From assembly GCA_964573775.1 (NCBI GenBank), contig CAZNKU010000003.1, positions 2,997-66,996 of the forward strand: a stretch of DNA of 64,000 bases, in the 5' to 3' direction. Under the pieces are notes generated by a model, which saw only the letters and a list, made by a program, of their open reading frames with translations, ran no database searches and was not told the origin of the DNA. Of this stretch, positions 18,253 through 38,763 are shown piece after piece (position 1 is the first letter of the stretch; each line of letters starts with the position of its first letter). The position numbers were made by a program, and so were the translations under genes. The DNA is from an uncultured Clostridiaceae bacterium. Lineage in GTDB: Bacteria; Bacillota; Clostridia; Monoglobales; Firm-18.

Positions 18253-18280
18253 GCGGTACGTCGAAATCGCCGTACCCTAC
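18253..18280 (-). repeat. REP unit flanking the 3' end of RAYT-1
   Basis: The minus strand reads GTAGGGTACGGCGATTTCGACGTACCGC. The TAG of GTAG is the stop codon of RAYT-1. Confidence 0.8.
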
Positions 18281-18801
18281 ATATTATAAAAACAGTCCTG
18301 TTTCCATTTCAAAACATTTGTATCTATGTATTCCCAAATTTTACGGTAATCCTCATCACCGCGTATTATGTGATCGTGGAATGATGATTGGAATAATTGC
18401 CTTTCTTCCAAACCCCTTTTTCTGCACAACCTTGTTGTTATAGATTTAAATGCACATATAACATCGGAAATTGTAGGGCAGGGGCTTGCTCCTGCCGCCA
18501 TTTCATAATTAGAAATCAAAACATGTATGTGATTTGGCATAATAACATATTTTTCTATTTTAATTCCTTTATAACGTTCTTCCAATAATTCTATTTGCTT
18601 TCTTGCAATATCTCCATATTTTGTTAATATGTTTTCGGCAGGAGCAAGCCCCTGCCCTACGATTATATTTGACAATATACATTTTCTGTCCTTTACACAT
18701 ATTGTAACAAAATATGTTCCGGGTGTTGAGTAATCATAATTTTTTAATCTTGTAGACTTTCTATTTGGGAGTTCATTTACCATATAATTACCTGTTTTCA
18801 A
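18277..18801 (-). CDS. REP-associated tyrosine transposase (RAYT, IS200/IS605-like Y1 HUH family), copy 1
   Basis: HUH motif PNHIHVLI, a C-terminal Tyr-helix (YRKIWEYIDTNVLKW), and an N-terminus RLKNYDYSTPGTYFVTICVKDR. The likely start is M7 at 18783. Confidence 0.8.
   Translation of the reverse strand: MKTGNYMVNELPNRKSTRLKNYDYSTPGTYFVTICVKDRKCILSNIIVGQGLAPAENILTKYGDIARKQIELLEERYKGIKIEKYVIMPNHIHVLISNYEMAAGASPCPTISDVICAFKSITTRLCRKRGLEERQLFQSSFHDHIIRGDEDYRKIWEYIDTNVLKWKQDCFYNM
18473..18497 (+). repeat. REP unit inside the RAYT-1 ORF
   Basis: GTAGGGCAGGGGCTTGCTCCTGCCG. It encodes ..AAGASPCPT.. on the minus strand. Confidence 0.8.
18636..18660 (-). repeat. REP unit inside the RAYT-1 ORF (inverted partner)
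   Basis: CGGCAGGAGCAAGCCCCTGCCCTAC on the plus strand. It encodes ..VGQGLAPA... Confidence 0.8.
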
Positions 18802-18804
18802 ATA

Positions 18805-19662
18805 TCAAAAATCCAATTTGCTTTTAACAACCTCAACCGCATCTCTTGAAATATTGCATTTTAAAAGATATGCAGGAACTGTTTTAAACAACTTATTGTA
18901 AAATTCAAGCAAAAGGTCTGACTGCTTTTTAAACACGGATATAGAGATTTCTCTCATCATACGAATAACTGCCTCCATAGGCTCTATTTCAGTAATTGAA
19001 CATTCTTCTGCACGCTCTATAAACACCATTGCATGAAGGGGAGCAGACATATTTTTATTGATAAATGTCTTTCCTGCCCAGGGTGTACCAAAAGCATGAA
19101 AAACACCGTCCACACAACGTATTGCAGGCATATCGTCATTTATTATGACTGTTTCAGGATAATATTTTTGCCACAATCCTGTATGGGTGGACTTTCCTGT
19201 ACCTGAAGCGGCTGTAAAGGTTACAGCCTTGCCATTATGCATTATGGTGGATGCGTGTAAAACTGCACCGTCAAAACATCTTAACCCCTGTGCAAAAAGG
19301 TGACCAAGCACGTTAACAGCAGTAAGGTCGGGGGCAATTCCGAAAAGCTCTGTAAGGTCGCTGTATGTATAGGAAAAATCATTCCATTTTTTATTAGTTC
19401 TCATAATCGAAACAGTTTTATCAACCTCGGTTATGTAGTCATAAAAACCGCATTCTGTTTCCGTTTCAAAAAAGCTTCTGCCGTTTTTGGTAACAAAAGG
19501 CTCAGGTGTATTACGTACAATGGAATTGTTAAGCTCGAATTTAACAGATATATCCGTACTGTCAAATTTTTCAACCTCGTAATCCTTCATTCTTGAATTA
19601 AAATAATCATAATTTACACCGTCAACCGCAAGGTTTAAACCGGCAATTTTATAATATTTCAT
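18805..19662 (-). CDS. HPr-kinase-like (HprK C-terminal domain-like) P-loop protein
   Basis: The segment LHASTIMHNGKAVTFTAASGTGKSTHT...VIINDD parallels the HprK/P core (Walker A followed by a DD segment). The ATG at 19662 follows a GAGGT RBS. Confidence 0.65.
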   Translation of the reverse strand: MKYYKIAGLNLAVDGVNYDYFNSRMKDYEVEKFDSTDISVKFELNNSIVRNTPEPFVTKNGRSFFETETECGFYDYITEVDKTVSIMRTNKKWNDFSYTYSDLTELFGIAPDLTAVNVLGHLFAQGLRCFDGAVLHASTIMHNGKAVTFTAASGTGKSTHTGLWQKYYPETVIINDDMPAIRCVDGVFHAFGTPWAGKTFINKNMSAPLHAMVFIERAEECSITEIEPMEAVIRMMREISISVFKKQSDLLLEFYNKLFKTVPAYLLKCNISRDAVEVVKSKLDF

Positions 19663-19748
19663 AGCATACCTCGTAAGAAAAACTATACACATATATAATA
19701 CTATATTTTGATGAAATAAGCAAGGTTTTTTTAGTGAATAATTGATTT

Positions 19749-20371
19749 GATAAAAACGTAGGGGAGGGTTTCCACACCCTCCCGATAATATGTGCCTTTT
19801 GCGGGCGGGTACAGAGACCCGCCCCTACGTTTGTGTTTTCACATTTATTCGTAGGGTACGATGCCTTCATCGTACCGCATACATATACCTTTTCGGGCTG
19901 ATGTGGGCATCCGCCCCTACAATGTTGTTTTAAAAGATGTTACAATTAAAAAGAAACACAAGGTGTTTCTACCATAATTATTCATTATTAACTATTTGCA
20001 CTCATCCGTAGCGGGCACAGAGGCACCTCCCCTACGATGTTGTTGGTAAAATTGTAGGGGAGGGTTTCCACACCCTCCCGAATGATAAATGTTGTTGGTA
20101 AAAACATAGGGAGGGTTTCCACACCCTCCCGATAATATGTGCCTTTTGCGGGCGGGTACAGAGACCCGCCCCTACGTTTGTGTTTTCACATTTATTCGTA
20201 GGGTACGATGCCTTCATCGTACCGCATACATATACCTTTTCGGGCTGATGTGGGCATCCGCCCCTACAATGTTGTTTTAAAAGATGTTACAATTAAAAAG
20301 AAACACAAGGTGTTTCTACCATAATTATTCATTATTCATTATTCATTATTCATTATTAACTATTTGCAGTC
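19749..20371. repeat. REP array: 10 GTAGGG-hairpin units in alternating orientation, including a tandemly duplicated block of about 250 bp (19749-19999 and 20096-20357, period 347 bp) and a 7-bp microsatellite
   Basis: Units lie at 19758-83(+), 19801-28(-), 19851-78(+), 19894-920(-), 20008-35(-), 20054-80(+), 20105-30(+), 20148-75(-), 20198-225(+) and 20241-67(-). The heptamer TTCATTA has 2 copies in the first block and 5 in the second. Confidence 0.85.
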
Positions 20372-20464
20372 GGCTGTTTCCAATCAAACTTCGCCATCAC
20401 TCGTTTTCCTGGACATCCTTTGCATGGGATTCGTTCGCCAAATCACAGATTTGGACTCATCCGC
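20372..20464 (-). repeat. Module M1 copy C
   Basis: The reverse complement matches 4619-4711 and 51075-51166. Confidence 0.8.
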
Positions 20465-20493
20465 AAAAAAAAGACGGGTATAAAACCCGTCCT
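20465..20493 (-). terminator. Rho-independent terminator after the 67-aa peptide gene
   Basis: Minus-strand hairpin GACGGGTTTTATACCCGTC followed by TTTTTTTT. Confidence 0.65.
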
Positions 20494-20518
20494 TTAAAAT
20501 TTAACATTTCAATTTGGT

Positions 20519-20722
20519 TTAGCCTTCTACTGATGCAGGAAGTTCTTCTCCATTACCGTTACTTACTGTATTTGAGTAAATAGAAACTGCATAATCAGTA
20601 CTTGCTGTTCCATTCAAATAAGATTTAATCATCTGTTTTCTTAGGTTAGTAAATGAGGCTGCAATATCATTTGAAGATTTTAGATTTACAACCTTTACTG
20701 ATGGTTTTGTATACTTTTTCAT
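20519..20722 (-). CDS. 67-aa Ser/Thr/Asn-rich peptide with a KKYxKPxV N-terminus (candidate RiPP-type precursor)
   Basis: The ATG at 20722 lies 9 nt after a GGGAGGTG RBS that directly follows the stop of the upstream gene. The sequence is MKKYTKPSVKVVNLKSSNDIAASF... Confidence 0.5.
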   Translation of the reverse strand: MKKYTKPSVKVVNLKSSNDIAASFTNLRKQMIKSYLNGTASTDYAVSIYSNTVSNGNGEELPASVEG

Positions 20723-20739
20723 ACTATATTGCACCTCCC

Positions 20740-22095
20740 TTATTCTGTGTACTGTACTAAACGTTCTACTGTGTAGTACTTACCTGGTAAGTCAGTACCG
20801 TCACCAAGAACTGTAAGCTCTTTCCAAACCGGAGCATCTGTTGTACCTTCGTTGATTACAGGTGTAGCTTCGATATCCCACTGTGTAGGATCAAGAGCAC
20901 CTGTGTCAGCACCGTCAAACAACTGGATAGCGAAGTTAGTCTGACCTGTGTAAGCGTTAGCGCAGATACCAAGTTCTACAGCTTGATTTTTTGCATCCTT
21001 AGTAGTAACTTTTGTAGCATCCATAGAAACTGTACCCTTAGGATATGCAGTAATCTTAAGACCTGCTTTATCAGCGATATCTACGGTTGGAGCTGTTACA
21101 AGGAATGTAACTGAATCATACTCAGCACTACCATATTTACCATAGATAGGCTTAGAATCAATTGACATATACTGTTCCAAATCATTCTCTCCCGATGATT
21201 CCATTTTTCTATAAAGAGAAATAATTGCACCAGGTTCAAGAGTAATATTACCGAACATACCGTCTGTAATGTCGTCCTTATAGAAACCATTAACCATCAA
21301 GTTAGTTGAATTATTATCTAAAGTATTATAAATTGTGAATGTAGTACTATCATCGTTAAGTTCACCTGTTACAGAACCTGTTCTTTTTGTATATCTAATA
21401 CGAACGCTATCATAGTTGTTGTCTGTTTCATAGGCAGCCGCATTAACTACGAATGCTACAACATCATCAAGAGGAGCAAACGTCATACGGTTACTTGACA
21501 TGTCGCCGTCATACCAGTTAGGATCAAATCTACTAGCATTCATATTACCTGTTGGGGAAGCAGGAACAACCGTACCGTCAGTTTTAACATAGTACAAATC
21601 TGTTTTATTACCATTGTCGCCTTCGTTCATAAATGTGATACCTGTCAATACATCTGTGAACTTTTCAACGGACTGTATGTAGTCGTAAGGTGCTGTACCG
21701 CTTGTTGCACGAGAAAGTGTATCAACTGTAGATGTGAATTTAACCTTACCGCCTTTAAGGTCTGCATAAGCAGCAGTAAAAGTATCCATTGTAGCAACGC
21801 CATCCGCACCAACTGTAGCCTGGTCGATGTGAAGAATGTTTGAACCGTCTTCCAAAACATCGTAAGATGTTGTAGCTTCTTCACCTTCACCTGTTGTAAC
21901 AGGAGCAACGATAAGGTAAGAAACCATTGAATCTGCAGTACCGCCTGCGATTGCAGCGTTAACTGTAATGTTCTTTGTAGAAACATCATAAGTTGTTGTT
22001 ACATTGTATGTACCGTCAGCACTAACGGAACATACTGCGCATGTCATCACCAAAGTGAAGACAACCAAAGCTGAAATAATTCTTTTTAGCTTCAT
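20740..22095 (-). CDS. Secreted protein of unknown function
   Basis: 451 aa with a signal peptide (cleavage near SVSA/DG). It is Thr/Asp/Gly-rich and I recognise no motif. The ORF is strong and uninterrupted, and its codon usage resembles the SLH gene. Confidence 0.7.
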   Translation of the reverse strand: MKLKRIISALVVFTLVMTCAVCSVSADGTYNVTTTYDVSTKNITVNAAIAGGTADSMVSYLIVAPVTTGEGEEATTSYDVLEDGSNILHIDQATVGADGVATMDTFTAAYADLKGGKVKFTSTVDTLSRATSGTAPYDYIQSVEKFTDVLTGITFMNEGDNGNKTDLYYVKTDGTVVPASPTGNMNASRFDPNWYDGDMSSNRMTFAPLDDVVAFVVNAAAYETDNNYDSVRIRYTKRTGSVTGELNDDSTTFTIYNTLDNNSTNLMVNGFYKDDITDGMFGNITLEPGAIISLYRKMESSGENDLEQYMSIDSKPIYGKYGSAEYDSVTFLVTAPTVDIADKAGLKITAYPKGTVSMDATKVTTKDAKNQAVELGICANAYTGQTNFAIQLFDGADTGALDPTQWDIEATPVINEGTTDAPVWKELTVLGDGTDLPGKYYTVERLVQYTE

Positions 22096-22246
22096 TTTTA
22101 AACCTCCTTGAGTGTTAAAAAATTATAAAAATAATATTAATCATATTTTACAACTTTTTTACAGAAATGTCAATATGTTTTTTAACTTTTTTTTAAAAAA
22201 TATTTTTTAAGGGATAATTGTGGCAGAAACGCCTTGCGTTTCTTTT

Positions 22247-22274
22247 GCGGTACGATGTGGGCATCGTACCCTAC
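22247..22274 (-). repeat. REP unit flanking the 3' end of RAYT-2
   Basis: The minus strand reads GTAGGGTACGATGCCCACATCGTACCGC. Confidence 0.8.
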
Positions 22275-22282
22275 GATTATGT

Positions 22283-22774
22283 TTACATGTTGTTATAAAA
22301 ACAATCCTGCTCCCATTTTAAAACATTGGTATCTATGTATTTCCAAATTTTACGGTAATCTTCATCACCGCGTATTATGTGGTCGTGATAGGAACGTTGC
22401 CAAATAGATACACCAATTGTTTTTGTAACCATTATTTTAAATGAACGCACAATGTTTTCAATATTTACTGTAGGGGACGATGCCCTCATCGTCCCGTTAA
22501 GGACAATAATCAAATGTATGTGATTTGGCATAATCACATATTTATCAACCGTCACATTGTTGTATTTAATATTTATATTCTCAATGTACTTTTTGCATAT
22601 CAATCCACATTCAGATAAATTATTTTTCGGGACGATGTAGGCATCGTCCCCTACGATTATATTTGACAATAATTGTTTTCTGTCCTTTGTACATATTGTA
22701 ATAAAATATGCACCAGGTGTGGAATAATCAAAATTCCTTAATCTTGTTGGTTTTCTTTTTGGCAATTTTTCCAT
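22283..22774 (-). CDS. REP-associated tyrosine transposase (RAYT), copy 2
   Basis: 163 aa, paralog of 18277-18801, with HUH PNHIHLII and a C-terminus YRKIWKYIDTNVLKW. Confidence 0.8.
   Translation of the reverse strand: MEKLPKRKPTRLRNFDYSTPGAYFITICTKDRKQLLSNIIVGDDAYIVPKNNLSECGLICKKYIENINIKYNNVTVDKYVIMPNHIHLIIVLNGTMRASSPTVNIENIVRSFKIMVTKTIGVSIWQRSYHDHIIRGDEDYRKIWKYIDTNVLKWEQDCFYNNM
22470..22496 (+). repeat. REP unit inside the RAYT-2 ORF
   Basis: GTAGGGGACGATGCCCTCATCGTCCCG, with a 9-bp perfect stem. Confidence 0.8.
22628..22654 (-). repeat. REP unit inside the RAYT-2 ORF (inverted partner)
   Basis: CGGGACGATGTAGGCATCGTCCCCTAC on the plus strand. Confidence 0.8.
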
Positions 22775-22788
22775 AATATCATCAATTA

Positions 22789-24471
22789 TTATATTTTAGA
22801 TTTCGGGACGATGTGAGCATCGTCACATACGGTTATTATTTTTCCTTCATTTACAAAAATTTTCTTATCCATATACTCTTCCGCCGCATTTTTATGGGAA
22901 ATAAGTATGCAGGTTTTATCTTTAAGATTTTTTATGTTGCCAAGCATTTTTGCCTCTGTGGCAGAATCCAGTGCCGATGTAGCCTCGTCCAGAAGCAGGA
23001 CAGAAGCATTACGATACAAAGCCCTTGCAACTGCAAGGCGTTGCACCTGACCTTCGGAAATGCCGACACCGTTTTCACCAATTACGGTGTTAATGCCATC
23101 CGTCATTTCGGAAATATCGTCCCAAAGGCAAGCAATTTTAAGACATTCTTCTATTTTTTTGCTATCGGCATTTTCACCAAAAAAAACCACATTTTCCGCA
23201 ACGGTACCTGAAAGCACCATATTACCCTGTGGTACGTAGGAAAACAGATTTCTATAATCTGCACCGAGCATATGCTCGTTACCCTGTGTATCGGTAAGTA
23301 TTATTTCACCGCTATCGGGGCTGTACATAGCAAGCAGTAATTTTAAAAGTGTGCTTTTACCTATGCCTGATACTCCCGATATAAGTACAAAGTCGCCTTT
23401 ATTAATTTTAAGGTCTGTATTTTTAAGCACTGTTTCATCCTTATTATAAGAAAAGGAAACTTTTTTAAATTCTATGCTTTCAAAGTCTGTAATATCAACT
23501 GTATTTTTATCTTCGGCATATTGCACAATGTCCATTAGTCTTTCTGCAGATGCTATCATCTGATAATACTGTGGTATTACGGAAGCGATACCTTTAAAGG
23601 GTGACTGCACCTTACCTACAAGCTGTACCATAGCCATAAGGTTGCCGTAGCTTAGTGTGCCGAAGGCTATGCCGAAAGCACCCCAGCCAAGTGCCAGAAA
23701 GTAACCGAAGGTAAATGCAAATTCTGCCGCAAGGCTTGCCATAATATTATTGTTATTACGTTTTTTTAGTGCCTTATAGTTATTATTCTGTATGCCCTCT
23801 GCATGCTTTACAACTCTATGTTCATTTGCAAAGGATTTTATAACCAACAGGTTTTGTATACATTCCAGCATAAAGGAATTGCTTTTATCACTCCATTTGC
23901 GGCATATAAGGGTATACTTTTTAAGACGTTTGCCCCAAAGCATTGCACCTACACCGACAACTATACCAACAGCCGCACATACAAGTGCAAAAACAGGCTG
24001 TATAACAAGCAGTGCACCAAAGGCGGAAACAACGCCTGTTACAAATGCAAGTATCTGCGGAATTATGCCGATTATTGCACACATTACCACATCGGAATCT
24101 ACGGTGATGCGATTTAAAATTTCACCGCTGTGCATAGAAGTTGCGTGGGCATACTGCATATTTATTGCATTGGAAAATATCTGTCTTTGCAGTTTTAATG
24201 TATGCTTTGCAACAATATCTGCACTTATTTTCATATAAGAAAAGCTTAGCAAAAATTGCAGAATAATCAAAACGCCAAGTAATGTTGCGGATTTTATAAG
24301 TCCATCTTTGTTTTGTGCCACCGCAAAGTCTATTACACTTTTGGACTGCAGTGCAAGCACTACTCCACAAAATGAATTAAGTATTCCTACAATACTTATT
24401 ACGCAAATTCCAGGTATAGCGGGCTTTCCTATGCTTTTTATCCATTGGAGGACAGGATTTTTATTTTTCAA
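22789..24471 (-). CDS. ABC exporter, fused permease/ATPase (type I exporter; no C39 peptidase domain)
   Basis: 560 aa with 6 TM helices, then Walker A GVSGIGKST, the signature ISEGQVQR and Walker B LLLDEATS. The last 11 codons run into a degenerate REP (22804-22830). Confidence 0.85.
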   Translation of the reverse strand: MKNKNPVLQWIKSIGKPAIPGICVISIVGILNSFCGVVLALQSKSVIDFAVAQNKDGLIKSATLLGVLIILQFLLSFSYMKISADIVAKHTLKLQRQIFSNAINMQYAHATSMHSGEILNRITVDSDVVMCAIIGIIPQILAFVTGVVSAFGALLVIQPVFALVCAAVGIVVGVGAMLWGKRLKKYTLICRKWSDKSNSFMLECIQNLLVIKSFANEHRVVKHAEGIQNNNYKALKKRNNNNIMASLAAEFAFTFGYFLALGWGAFGIAFGTLSYGNLMAMVQLVGKVQSPFKGIASVIPQYYQMIASAERLMDIVQYAEDKNTVDITDFESIEFKKVSFSYNKDETVLKNTDLKINKGDFVLISGVSGIGKSTLLKLLLAMYSPDSGEIILTDTQGNEHMLGADYRNLFSYVPQGNMVLSGTVAENVVFFGENADSKKIEECLKIACLWDDISEMTDGINTVIGENGVGISEGQVQRLAVARALYRNASVLLLDEATSALDSATEAKMLGNIKNLKDKTCILISHKNAAEEYMDKKIFVNEGKIITVCDDAHIVPKSKI

Positions 24472-24502
24472 AATCTTTTCTCCCCTTTGTATAGTTATAA
24501 TA

Positions 24503-24648
24503 CGGGAGGGTGCAGAGACCCTCCCCTACGATTATATTTGACAGCAATTGTTTTCTGTCCTTTGTACATATTGTAACAAAATATGCACCCGGTTTGGAAT
24601 AATCAAATTTTTTTAATCTTGTGGCTTTCTTTTTGGCAATTTTTCCAT
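24503..24648 (-). pseudogene. Truncated, frameshifted RAYT N-terminal fragment
   Basis: The minus strand reads ATGGAAAAATTGCCAAAAAGAAAGCCACAAGATTAA... It is colinear with the RAYT-2 5' end but has a 1-nt deletion, and it ends at its first internal REP (24503-24529). Confidence 0.7.
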
Positions 24649-24677
24649 TATATCACCAATTTTTATATTTTGGATTT

Positions 24678-24761
24678 CGGCAGGAGTACCCACAGGGCAC
24701 AGGCAACCCTGTCCTACGATTGTGTTTTATCTTGCGGTACGTCGAAGTCGCCGTACCCTAC
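24678..24761 (-). repeat. Two REP-type units between the RAYT fragment and the S24 peptidase gene
   Basis: 24692-24717 has stem ACAGGG/CCCTGT plus CCTAC. 24734-24761 is GCGGTACGTCGAAGTCGCCGTACCCTAC, 1 nt different from 18253-18280. Confidence 0.75.
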
Positions 24762-24763
24762 GA

Positions 24764-25237
24764 TTATTTAGATTTATCTTTGCGTCTGAACTTCATTGCA
24801 AATTTAAATACAGACGGTCTTACAGGCAACACAAGGCACCACAAAAAGCTGTATATTCTGTACCAAAGACATTTAGTGCTATATTCCTTGCCCTTACGTT
24901 CAAAGGAAGTCATTACTGCCAATATATCTTCTTGCTTAACAGGATATTCTATGGCAACCTGGTCATCGCCGCAAAGCTTAAAACCAAGCTTGCCTTTGCC
25001 CACCACACGGTGCAAAACGTAACTTCCGTCTGCACGGCGATACAAAATTATATCACGCTTTTTAATTTTTTCTGCCCCTGCAACAGTAACCTTATCTCTG
25101 TTATTTATAAACAGGGGATACATACTGTTGCCAACTACCGTAAACTTTATTTCCCTGCCCATTTCTAAAAACGGCAAGGATATATTTACAATATCCTCCA
25201 TAGAGGTCAGTGAAAATCTACCAATTAAATCAGACAT
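24764..25237 (-). CDS. S24/S26-family (LexA/signal-peptidase-like) serine peptidase with a C-terminal hydrophobic segment
   Basis: GNSMYP Ser-nucleophile motif, downstream ..YVLHRVVGKG.., and a hydrophobic stretch IYSFLWCLVLPV. Confidence 0.65.
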   Translation of the reverse strand: MSDLIGRFSLTSMEDIVNISLPFLEMGREIKFTVVGNSMYPLFINNRDKVTVAGAEKIKKRDIILYRRADGSYVLHRVVGKGKLGFKLCGDDQVAIEYPVKQEDILAVMTSFERKGKEYSTKCLWYRIYSFLWCLVLPVRPSVFKFAMKFRRKDKSK

Positions 25238-25505
25238 CTATTACTCCTGCTGCCGCAAGCTCTTTTATAAATATTTTAATATCTCCTGCTGCAGTTTCTT
25301 TATCCACATCATATTCTTTTAAAACAGCTTTAAGTAAATCGCCTTCTGTTTTATCCTCTAAAAGCTGTAACCACAAAAATGCACTTACATCGTTAAGCAT
25401 TATCATAGAGCTGAAATCCAGAACATTGCTTTCGGTAGGTATTACAACGTAGTTGTCGGCAATTTCTCTTAGTTCAAAGCCAGGTTTGATTTTCAATACA
25501 TTCAC
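25230..25505 (-). CDS. PqqD-family protein (RiPP recognition element-like)
   Basis: 91 aa. The pattern ..Y.V.P.......MI.LNDVSAFLW..L....T...L........Y.VD.E.A..DI..FI..L...G is typical of PqqD/RRE proteins. Confidence 0.7.
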   Translation of the reverse strand: MNVLKIKPGFELREIADNYVVIPTESNVLDFSSMIMLNDVSAFLWLQLLEDKTEGDLLKAVLKEYDVDKETAAGDIKIFIKELAAAGVIDV

Positions 25506-38738: not shown

Positions 38739-38763
38739 GTAGGGCAAGGGCTTGCTCTTGCCG
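38739..38763 (+). repeat. Isolated REP unit
   Basis: GTAGGGCAAGGGCTTGCTCTTGCCG. It belongs to the same stem class as the units inside RAYT-1. Confidence 0.7.

Follow-up and report, generated by a model that had tools for sequence, protein, structure and literature searches.

What are the GTAGGG hairpins that crowd around two transposase-like genes in a member of the Clostridia, and why do some of them lie inside the genes themselves? The question is raised by a stretch of 64,000 nucleotides (the window) from an uncultured Clostridiaceae bacterium (assembly GCA_964573775.1, contig CAZNKU010000003.1, positions 2,997 to 66,996 of the forward strand), in which the hairpins gather at 18253-24761 together with two open reading frames (ORFs), ORF1 and ORF2. 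Our analysis indicates that this is probably a REPtron-type cluster of a low-GC Clostridia genome, made up of two diverged genes for REP-associated tyrosine transposases (RAYTs, also called TnpA-REP), a 5' pseudogene fragment from a third copy and about 20 repetitive extragenic palindromes (REPs) with a GTAGGG anchor, for which a mechanism is proposed by analogy. Each gene carries in frame an inverted pair of these hairpins, and the pair recurs in homologous genes of other Clostridia. Experiments on RAYTs, on REPs and on the recognition of a REP by a RAYT cover three proteobacterial enzymes.

The two RAYT genes

Both genes are predicted from their sequences to encode Y1 HUH single-strand DNA endonucleases, closest to subclass 2.4 (RAYT Group 4). 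Both ORFs pass the Pfam model Y1_Tnp (ORF1 with E 1.2e-6, above the gathering score, and ORF2 with E 5.5e-6), and by far the best NCBIfam match of each is NF047646, REP_Tyr_transpos (E 7.6e-19 and 68 bits for ORF1, E 2.7e-16 and 59.8 bits for ORF2). The likely start of ORF1 by homology is the ATG at 18783 (MVNELPNRK...), which gives a protein of 168 aa. In a phmmer search of PDB sequences E. coli TnpA-REP, 4ER8, was the sole match. The alignment covers residues 75-153 of ORF2 and puts H85-I-H87 on the HUH motif and Y146...N150 on the catalytic Y115...N119, and ORF2 residues W125, Q126, D131, H132 and R135 fall on those that contact GTAG, which in the E. coli enzyme are W94, Q95, E/D100, H101 and R104 (roles according to Quentin et al. 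2018, PMC6006769, and Corneloup et al. 2021). The PNHIH motif, opposite PEHMH of 4ER8, is invariant in 29 aligned homologues, and the protein alignment gives HIH, YIDTN and FQ..DH..R as the motifs of ORF1. The residue after the motif N is V in both window genes and P in many homologues. The tyrosine of 'SYHDH' was considered as the catalytic residue and rejected, as in both ORFs the 4ER8 alignment places the GTAG-reading motif there and the catalytic Tyr in YIDTN.

An AlphaFold (AF2) model of ORF2 was built from the 29 homologues (predicted local distance difference test, pLDDT, 76). Foldseek against the PDB ranked 4ER8_A first (E 3.9e-7, template modelling score 0.62, root-mean-square deviation 2.9 A, 146 columns), and 4ER8 is TnpA-REP bound to a REP hairpin. 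The initial annotation had read the locus as GTAG palindromes with RAYT/TnpA-REP genes, and this is borne out: both ORFs are of the Y1 HUH type with HIH and YIDTN, a family alignment has the HUH and the catalytic Tyr in each of them, and 4ER8 is the best structural match. The layout is also that of a REPtron, ORF2 having a unit at either end and ORF1 one at its 3' end, with arrays close by.

The next structural matches of the model were the ISDra2 and IS608 transposases, and the Y1 HUH fold is common to the IS200/IS605 family. It is nevertheless scarcely credible that the ORFs are IS200/IS605 transposases and the hairpins the ends of insertion sequences (ISs). NCBIfam transpos_IS200 matches ORF1 only, with E 1.8e-4, far under its cut-off; the Y motif is Y...N as in class 2, whose signature is Y---NP, and not the Y---Q of IS200 (PMC6006769); no TnpB-sized partner ORF is present in 16-27 kb; and the hairpins bear the REP-type GTAG tag. 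The two proteins are only 54% identical, unlike IS copies, and are therefore diverged paralogues.

GTAGGG hairpins in the window

A unit was defined as GTAGG plus a single hairpin, at most 4 nt further on, with a DNA folding energy (dG) of -5 kcal/mol or lower, and the whole window was scanned. It was found that the window holds 17 strict units, 16 of them in the region 18253-24761. Dinucleotide-preserving shuffles gave a mean of 0.68 units for the window (40 shuffles) and a mean of 0.07, with a maximum of 1, for the region (100 shuffles). Four degenerate units (20004-20035, 20106-20131, 22802-22830 and 24686-24717) were added by eye, from a listing of RTAGG sites and by flank alignment, which brings the region to about 20 units and, with a stray copy at 38739-38762, the window to 21 copies. 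These units have the features of a REP, which is a palindrome of 20-40 nt with a conserved 5' GTAG: they consist of GTAGGG and a hairpin with an 8-9-bp stem and a 4-6-nt loop. The initial annotation had counted more than 20 units in 6.5 kb, which is correct to within one. The stray copy that it saw near 38739 is real and intergenic, all five units that it quoted as examples have the quoted stems in the quoted places, the closing CG corresponds to a G directly after the 3' arm ('...CCG') in every regular unit, and the enrichment over shuffled sequence that it expected is seen.

It should be noted here that the count is partly inflated, because a block of 235 nt with four units occurs twice (19762-19996 = 20109-20343, a direct repeat, 99% identical, spacing 347). 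Tandem Repeats Finder did not report this 347-bp duplication, which a general repeat search did find. The second copy of the block ends in a perfect 7-nt microsatellite, ATTATTC x 4.9 at 20324-20357, where the first copy has a single stretch. An Rfam search gave no family match anywhere in the window.

The stems had been described as at least five unrelated sequences. They are better described as three related architectures, within each of which the variants differ by compensated changes. The first has a 9-bp stem and a 4-nt loop (GG[GT]ACGATG, GGGCGGATG, GGTACGGCG), the second an 8-bp stem and a 6-nt loop (GGGAGGGT, GGGCGGGT), and the third an 8-bp stem with the loop CTTG (GGCAGGGG, GGCAAGGG).

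An inverted hairpin pair inside each gene

The initial annotation had the units flanking the two genes. Flanking units do exist, but four further units lie in frame inside ORF1 and ORF2. On the coding strand unit 1 of each gene reads ATC-GTA-GGG-stem-loop-stem-CCG, and the inverted unit 2 follows about 140 nt downstream. The pair thus encloses the HUH-coding segment on both sides with its GTAG ends pointing outward. The two units of a gene have their stem in common, and the stem of ORF1 differs from that of ORF2. In the structural model the unit-encoded peptides sit in surface loops: that of ORF2 unit 1 is predicted as the tip of a beta-hairpin before helix A (residues 42-49, pLDDT about 51), and that of unit 2 as a disordered loop after the HUH strand (residues 97-100, pLDDT below 50). 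A coding palindrome or invertible cassette was also considered, from a weak antisense tblastn match to ORF2 residues 24-107, and was rejected. The match stems only from the two unit-encoded peptides, and an inverted middle segment would encode no protein because stop codons lie between them.

The pair was followed in a comparison set of 80 homologous loci, one genome per species, with 46-80% identity. In at least 72 of the 80 genes, which come from other Clostridia, the pair occupies two fixed sites: unit 1 falls around nt 100-130 of the coding strand and unit 2, on the opposite strand, around nt 240-320. The reading frame of GTAGGG is identical in 71 of the 72 pair-bearing genes. The in-gene units have 33 distinct 5' arms, yet the two units of the same gene differ by 0.76 mismatches per 10 nt, as compared to 4.0 with permuted partners (permutation minimum 3.4). 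With the hairpin codons removed, stem distance follows protein distance (Mantel r 0.29, permutation maximum 0.21). In other species the genes nearest to ORF1, at 66-79% identity (79% for locus L031), have an identical 24-nt unit, and the GTAGGGCAGGGGCTTGCTCCTGCC unit is found unchanged at the same site in L031, L055 and L059. The nearest relatives of ORF2 carry the GGGACGATG stem class. In-gene units are missing from the relatives at 30-35% identity (Leptolinea, Spirosoma, Fulvitalea), which are flanked by GTAGGG or 'double-foot' REPs.

The in-gene hairpins are held constant at the nucleotide level. In ORF2 and nine relatives the majority base at third codon positions reaches a frequency of 0.98 in each of the two units, as compared to 0.68 over the remainder of the gene. 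For codons of invariant amino acids in the same lineage, it is 0.98 in the units (n=12) and 0.70 elsewhere (n=52). In the ORF1 lineage third codon positions stand at 1.0 in both units and 0.70 elsewhere in the gene. The GTAGGG anchor is fixed throughout, G1-G6 being invariant in 91 distinct units. These 26-nt units have 91.6% of their stem cells paired and seven of nine stem pairs changed on both sides, figures which count for less than they seem to and so weigh against our reading, since the folding threshold chose the hairpins used for covariation and the pairing statistics are inflated and partly circular. A less circular test is given by the stem pairs that differ between the two units of one gene. 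Of these, 27 of 33 are compensated inside the unit, and it is therefore the local hairpin that is kept. The claim that structure is kept and sequence is not holds across lineages, where the seven pairs have changed on both sides. Within a RAYT lineage it does not hold, for there the hairpin is almost invariant, even at synonymous sites, and sequence is therefore kept too.

In 39 of the 91 distinct units a non-Watson-Crick G.A or A.G is fixed at one stem position, the pair of column 11 with column 20 (the GGCG/CGAC and GACG/CGGC classes), and the window units 18255-80 and 24736-61 belong to these mismatch classes. By analogy, the conserved mismatch could be an irregularity used in recognition, like the bulge of the E. 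coli REP, and it resembles the stem irregularities read by proteobacterial enzymes. Inversions confined to the loop were also observed, AGGG against CCCT in unit 1 of L001 and GTAGGC against GCCTAC in the rows GTAGGGGCGGATGTAGGCATCCGCCC and GTAGGGGCGGATGCCTACATCCGCCC. Such inverted loops are a signature of hairpin-templated flipping.

It could be asked whether the in-gene hairpins do anything at all. They may be tolerated passengers, left by an ancestral in-frame insertion of REPs into two surface loops (an origin that has been suggested for subclass 2.4) and without function, a reading which we consider rather doubtful. Their upkeep would then be due to intrastrand template switching, which keeps the palindromes perfect, and to overwriting from genomic REPs, and this too we hold to be somewhat unlikely. 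Quentin et al. 2018 (PMC6006769) take REPs within the gene to be loop insertions that hardly affect the protein, the model gives the encoded peptides as loops of low confidence, and the relatives at 30-35% identity, to judge from their sequences, function without in-gene units. The hairpin differs outright between flanks that are about 91% identical (the gene fragment described below and ORF2), which looks like replacement rather than gradual change, and the loop flip of L001 marks a palindrome-templated event. On the other hand the sites, orientation and frame of the pair are constant in at least 72 of 80 genes over 46-86% protein identity, and no presence/absence polymorphism was seen within the clade (80 genes). 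Synonymous sites in the units are conserved at 0.98-1.0 against 0.70 in the rest of the gene. Self-correction preserves pairing, but it leaves the same sequence across species unexplained.

A second possibility is that the pair acts in the mRNA independently of RAYT binding, limiting translation or marking a target of RNase III, so that this nuclease, which could do harm, is kept low. When the 206-nt segment of ORF2 is folded, unit 1 pairs with unit 2 in a long-range stem of 26 bp (RNA -74.3 kcal/mol, z -8.9; DNA -41.5, z -7.9). The constraint is on nucleotides and not on the protein, and other IS200-type tnpA mRNAs are controlled by structure. We nevertheless regard a role in the mRNA as unlikely. 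With 27 of 33 differing pairs compensated within the unit, the local hairpins are preserved at the expense of the long-range duplex, and the invariant GTAGGG and the identity with dispersed extragenic REPs point to recognition of DNA by the enzyme.

Broken gene copies

A truncated, frameshifted 5' RAYT fragment lies upstream of ORF2 (Table 1). Its homology to ORF2 stops right after its unit, and it has a deletion of 1 nt (tblastn match 24464-24646). The 5' part is 90.8% identical to ORF2 over 152 nt, with a hairpin of another class, that of L076. The fragment and ORF2 have in common an upstream unit, a leader of 35 nt (in ORF2 after unit 22802-22830) and the N-terminal coding part, and the fragment loses homology just upstream of an ABC exporter gene. 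Breaks at units were also found in other loci. L057 (4126-4480, minus strand) and L060 (4051-4365, plus strand) have RAYT paralogues which lack the HUH segment between the in-gene units. The L060 copy is in frame and would encode a HUH-less protein that retains the Tyr motif, and what is left in L057 (a unit, 12 nt and half a unit) is similar to the tail-to-tail dimers with spacers of 18-19 nt at 19758-19920. A further broken copy starts at unit 1 (L042) and another ends at unit 2 (L072).

These breakpoints fit cleavage and rejoining at REPs, as shown for E. coli TnpA-REP in vitro (PMC3333891). Palindrome-stimulated errors of replication would also fit them. As in the window, L010, L020, L023, L032, L042, L060 and L062 have at least two RAYT paralogues in tandem or near each other within 6 kb, and clustering of paralogues seems to be common in the clade.

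Hairpins outside the genes

In the 80 loci the density of units is 4.06 per kb in the gene, 0.45 per kb in the first 500 bp of the flank and 0.11-0.19 per kb beyond, and 0.028 per kb in shuffled sequence. An association of hairpins with RAYT genes, initially proposed from the window, is thus seen as strong enrichment in and beside the genes of these related loci. Such a distribution also bears on the possibility that the hairpins have nothing to do with the Y1 genes and serve the neighbouring operon genes, as ordinary intrinsic terminators or as stabilisers of mRNA 3' ends. Some units were indeed flagged by a terminator-like scan (e.g. 19762-19783 and 20109-20130, minus strand), and E. coli REPs are reported to affect 3' untranslated regions. 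However, most units lack a T-run, five or six lie within coding sequence, the GTAGGG anchor is invariant, the enrichment peaks inside the RAYT genes, and canonical terminators stand separately at 19952-19970 and 20299-20317. This explanation is very improbable, and a terminator reading was rejected for most units.

In other genomes the hairpin core occurs as a dispersed repeat. A scan of metagenomes for GTAGGGGACGATGNNNNCATCGTCCC gave at least 120 stretches, of which 80 loci with 82 matches were examined. Two matches lie inside a RAYT homologue, 62 have no RAYT within 500 bp and the other 18 are within 250 bp of a contig end. Among the matches examined, 64 of 82 are outside any ORF of at least 120 aa, and some stand in regularly spaced arrays. 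The 80 loci show 78 distinct contexts. It was also observed that the GGGACGATG unit away from RAYT genes (L084-L163) often has a longer conserved context, ...AAAC.CTGCAAA..ATTT[unit]GC.G..GGGCCTTGCC, and that it occurs in arrays of the same orientation with gaps of 42-43 nt. The longer context and the arrays suggest a larger repeat element in some gut genomes.

In the window the flanking units are mostly of classes other than the in-gene stems of the two genes. A local REP population carrying the gene's own in-gene stem was expected; it is not claimed here, as the match is only weak (28 of 114 extragenic units, see below). Gene neighbourhoods are hardly common between the loci compared, so that at this divergence mobility is neither proven nor excluded.

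Features of the locus

Coordinates of the genes and units are collected in Table 1. The TAG of GTAGGG in unit 18255-18280 is the stop codon of ORF1. In the array 19758-19920 the stems are GGGAGGGT, GGGCGGGT, GGTACGATG and GGGCGGATG, and the tail-to-tail spacers are 19 and 18 nt. Unit 22249-22274 has the 5' flank ATAATC, the same as at in-gene unit 1. Two more units lie in coding sequence, namely 24504-24529, which ends the truncated RAYT copy, and 22802-22830, which supplies the C-terminal tail of the ABC exporter (minus-strand ORF 22789-24471). The exporter owes its final 13 codons (TVCDDAHIVPKSKI) to this REP, and they are read in the frame of unit 1 in the RAYT genes. The 3' arm of the irregular unit 24686-24717 is of the ORF1 class. 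Unit 38739-38762 differs from the ORF1 units by one compensated pair and is located between two minus-strand ORFs.

Table 1. Genes and hairpin units of the REP/RAYT locus (window coordinates; dG in kcal/mol)
Feature	Position	Strand	Details
REP unit	18255-18280	-	ORF1 3' end; GTAGGGTACGGCGATTTCGACGTACC, dG -7.8, G.A mismatch in stem
RAYT gene ORF1	18277-18801	-	mechanical start TTG 18801
In-gene unit 2 of ORF1	18473-18497	+	encodes AAGASPCPT; exact reverse complement of ORF1 unit 1
In-gene unit 1 of ORF1	18636-18660	-	encodes VGQGLAPA; GTAGGGCAGGGGCTTGCTCCTGCC, dG -6.2
BIME-like (bacterial interspersed mosaic element) four-unit array, alternating orientation	19758-19920		19758-83 (+), 19803-28 (-), 19851-76 (+), 19895-920 (-)
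Unit between duplicated-block copies	20004-20035	-	degenerate
Unit between duplicated-block copies	20054-20079	+	regular
Second copy of four-unit array	20106-20267		20106-31 (+, ATAGGG anchor), 20150-75 (-), 20198-223 (+), 20242-67 (-)
REP unit	22249-22274	-	8 nt past ORF2 stop codon; GTAGGGTACGATGCCCACATCGTACC, dG -9.5
RAYT gene ORF2	22283-22774	-	163 aa
In-gene unit 2 of ORF2	22470-22495	+	inverted; encodes GTMRASSPT; GTAGGGGACGATGCCCTCATCGTCCC, dG -10.3
In-gene unit 1 of ORF2	22629-22654	-	encodes VGDDAYIVP; GTAGGGGACGATGCCTACATCGTCCC, dG -10.6
Degenerate REP unit	22802-22830	-	GTATGT anchor; upstream of ORF2
Truncated, frameshifted 5' RAYT fragment	24504-24648	-	ends exactly at 3' edge of its unit 1 (24504-24529, GGGAGGGT class)
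Two REP units	24686-24761	-	upstream of truncated copy; 24736-61 regular, GGTACGGCG class; 24686-717 irregular
Isolated REP unit	38739-38762	+	intergenic, ORF1 class; GTAGGGCAAGGGCTTGCTCTTGCC, dG -5.4

Two mechanically called minus-strand ORFs, 19649-19870 (73 aa) and 20032-20217 (61 aa), run across the REP arrays and are almost certainly spurious; REP arrays could seed false gene calls. The REP and RAYT copies lie among genes that resemble a cluster for peptide maturation and export (18805-19692, 20519-22095 and 22789-25505, all on the minus strand). Its members include a PqqD-like protein (25230-25505), a signal-peptidase-I-like protein (24764-25237) and the ABC exporter, and further a 295-aa P-loop protein with weak ScmC/HprK-related matches and a 451-aa secreted protein which, with a 71-aa ORF, gave no family match. 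Elsewhere in the window a direct repeat of about 90 nt (865-953/1068-1155) contains a strong terminator-like hairpin, AGAAATCCGTATG...CATACGGATTTCT, which in the first copy has a T-run directly behind it. The GTAG at the start of this hairpin is a coincidence, and there is no relation to the REP family.

Discussion

The present analysis points to a REPtron-type cluster, and a mechanism can be proposed for it from work on the E. coli, S. maltophilia and Marinomonas enzymes. The enzyme would bind a folded REP on single-stranded DNA. By the same analogy its WQ..DH..R motif would read the 5' GTAG, and the shape of the stem-loop and its irregularities would also be read. Cutting and rejoining of the DNA beside the hairpin would result in REPs being created, moved or recombined. 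As to the diversity of stems in the region, each architecture belongs to a RAYT lineage, and several lineages would have left their copies side by side.

A number of points weigh against this reading. Everything mechanistic for the clade is borrowed from proteobacterial enzymes. The NF047646 scores of ORF1 and ORF2 are under the curated cut-off of 80 bits, so that the two are RAYT-like, yet lie outside this equivalog model. ORF1 has F where W is conserved in the GTAG-reading motif, and the Y motif is YIDTNV and not the YxxxNP of class 2. Selection is not needed for perfect palindromes and double changes, which can also arise by intrastrand templated correction or by conversion from other REPs. 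Among extragenic units within 6 kb of the gene only 28 of 114 come within 1 mismatch of the in-gene stem, and the mean distance between extragenic and in-gene stems is 3.96 mismatches as compared to 4.48 when permuted. Lastly, the REPs of the window are clustered and not dispersed, with 20 of 21 copies within 6.5 kb of the 64 kb of genome.

What purpose could a pair of REPs serve inside the gene of the enzyme? The nucleotide constraint and the breakpoints at units suggest that the enzyme may act on its own gene. It is conceivable, and we put it forward tentatively, that the pair represents built-in cognate substrates which the enzyme recognises in its own gene. This would keep enzyme and substrate co-inherited, and the in-gene units would be hot spots for cleavage and rejoining, giving rise to truncated and HUH-deleted copies. 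A bolder proposal is that the gene is a self-contained module of enzyme plus substrate, in which the outward-facing REPs around the HUH segment are functional sites for the gene's own enzyme; this we consider doubtful. If it were true, the pair could play a part in autoregulation, in seeding new REP dimers when the HUH segment is excised or collapses, or in supplying a cognate substrate after horizontal transfer.

The clade is abundant in gut metagenomes: ORF2 has at least about 8000 homologues at E <= 1e-5, nearly all from metagenome-assembled genomes of Clostridia/Oscillospiraceae. Each gene holds two hairpins of its lineage, so that a single gene sequence, with no need of a complete genome, shows which hairpin goes with which enzyme. 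Whether protein residues co-vary with hairpin bases is therefore directly testable, and by analogy with 4ER8 helix alpha-C and the strand before WQ are the foremost candidates for the specificity residues. Should the module exist, thousands of genes would be self-labelled pairs of enzyme and hairpin and could serve to decipher the recognition code of Y1 HUH enzymes, and action of the enzyme on its own gene, if true, would add something new to the biology of domesticated transposases. For annotation it is of importance that the hairpins create spurious ORFs, give neighbouring genes REP-derived tails and mark hot spots of rearrangement.

Comparison with known systems

GTAG REPs, RAYTs, REPtrons and the presence of several REP classes per gene are established (PMC6006769). 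The initial annotation had considered several stem classes side by side to be unusual. This is not so, as multiple REP subfamilies are common, more than one flanking the gene in nearly half of the sample of Quentin et al. 2018 (PMC6006769). In-frame REPs within tnpA-REP genes have likewise been reported, for subclass 2.4 of the same study, which is RAYT Group 4 of Bertels et al. 2017 (PMC5581495), and the present locus is therefore a known kind of system and not a new one. What is new is the Clostridia member, and its distinctive in-gene feature is partly known. In the openly readable literature we did not find described a fixed two-site inverted pair around the HUH with lineage-specific stems, although such absence is not proof, nor the near-invariance of the units at synonymous sites and the breakpoints of decayed copies at units.

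The likeness to subclass 2.4, which is drawn from motif and REP tables, extends to several features. The NHIH motif (NH[IFV]H in the 2.4 signature) and the WQ motif, in-frame REPs in the gene, low copy number and diverged paralogues are common to both, as are REPs of the GTAGGG type (the A. aphrophilus REP of Table S1 is GTAGGG with an 8-bp stem and a 5-nt loop), and the 'double foot' REP described for 2.4 is found in the Bacteroidota relatives at 30-34% identity. However, the in-gene insertions of 2.4 vary in length and sequence and lie mostly between HuH and Y (PMC6006769), whereas the Clostridia genes have exactly two units at fixed sites, one before and one after HuH, inverted, with matching stems and near-invariant at synonymous positions. 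The Y motif is YIDTN[VP] in the window clade, an approximation to the YIxNNP of 2.4 with T in place of an N, the Leptolinea relative having YIINNP, and the hosts here are Clostridia, which are not among the main taxa named for 2.4.

With the E. coli REPtron (TnpA-REP/RayT YafM; Ton-Hoang 2012, PMC3333891; Messing 2012, 4ER8) the locus has in common the Y1 HUH fold, the aligned catalytic and GTAG-contact residues, GTAG 5' of an imperfect palindrome, REPs of alternating orientation beside the gene and, in some classes, a conserved irregularity in the stem, here G.A and in E. coli a bulge. Unlike E. coli TnpA-REP, from which they differ at about 20% identity, the window proteins have no C-terminal tail, the stems are short (8-9 bp) and REPs lie in the gene. 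Copy number is low and clustered in this window, as against hundreds of dispersed copies in E. coli.

Like REPINs, in which two REPs form one hairpin (Bertels and Rainey 2011, PMC3116915), the inverted in-gene REPs pair in silico into one long hairpin, but the 'spacer' here is about 140 nt of coding sequence with the HUH motif. The extragenic dimers of the window cannot form a REPIN hairpin, because their two units have different stems. In-frame palindromes are also tolerated, as 7-10 loop residues, in the case of RPE (Rickettsia palindromic elements) and of intragenic GTAG/CGTC REPs (Di Nocera et al. 2013, PMC3733652), and as with intragenic REPs a REP terminus provides ORF1 with its stop codon and the ABC exporter with its C-terminal tail. 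Those elements are scattered over unrelated genes and sites, whereas here the host gene is that of the presumed acting enzyme and the sites are fixed across a large clade.

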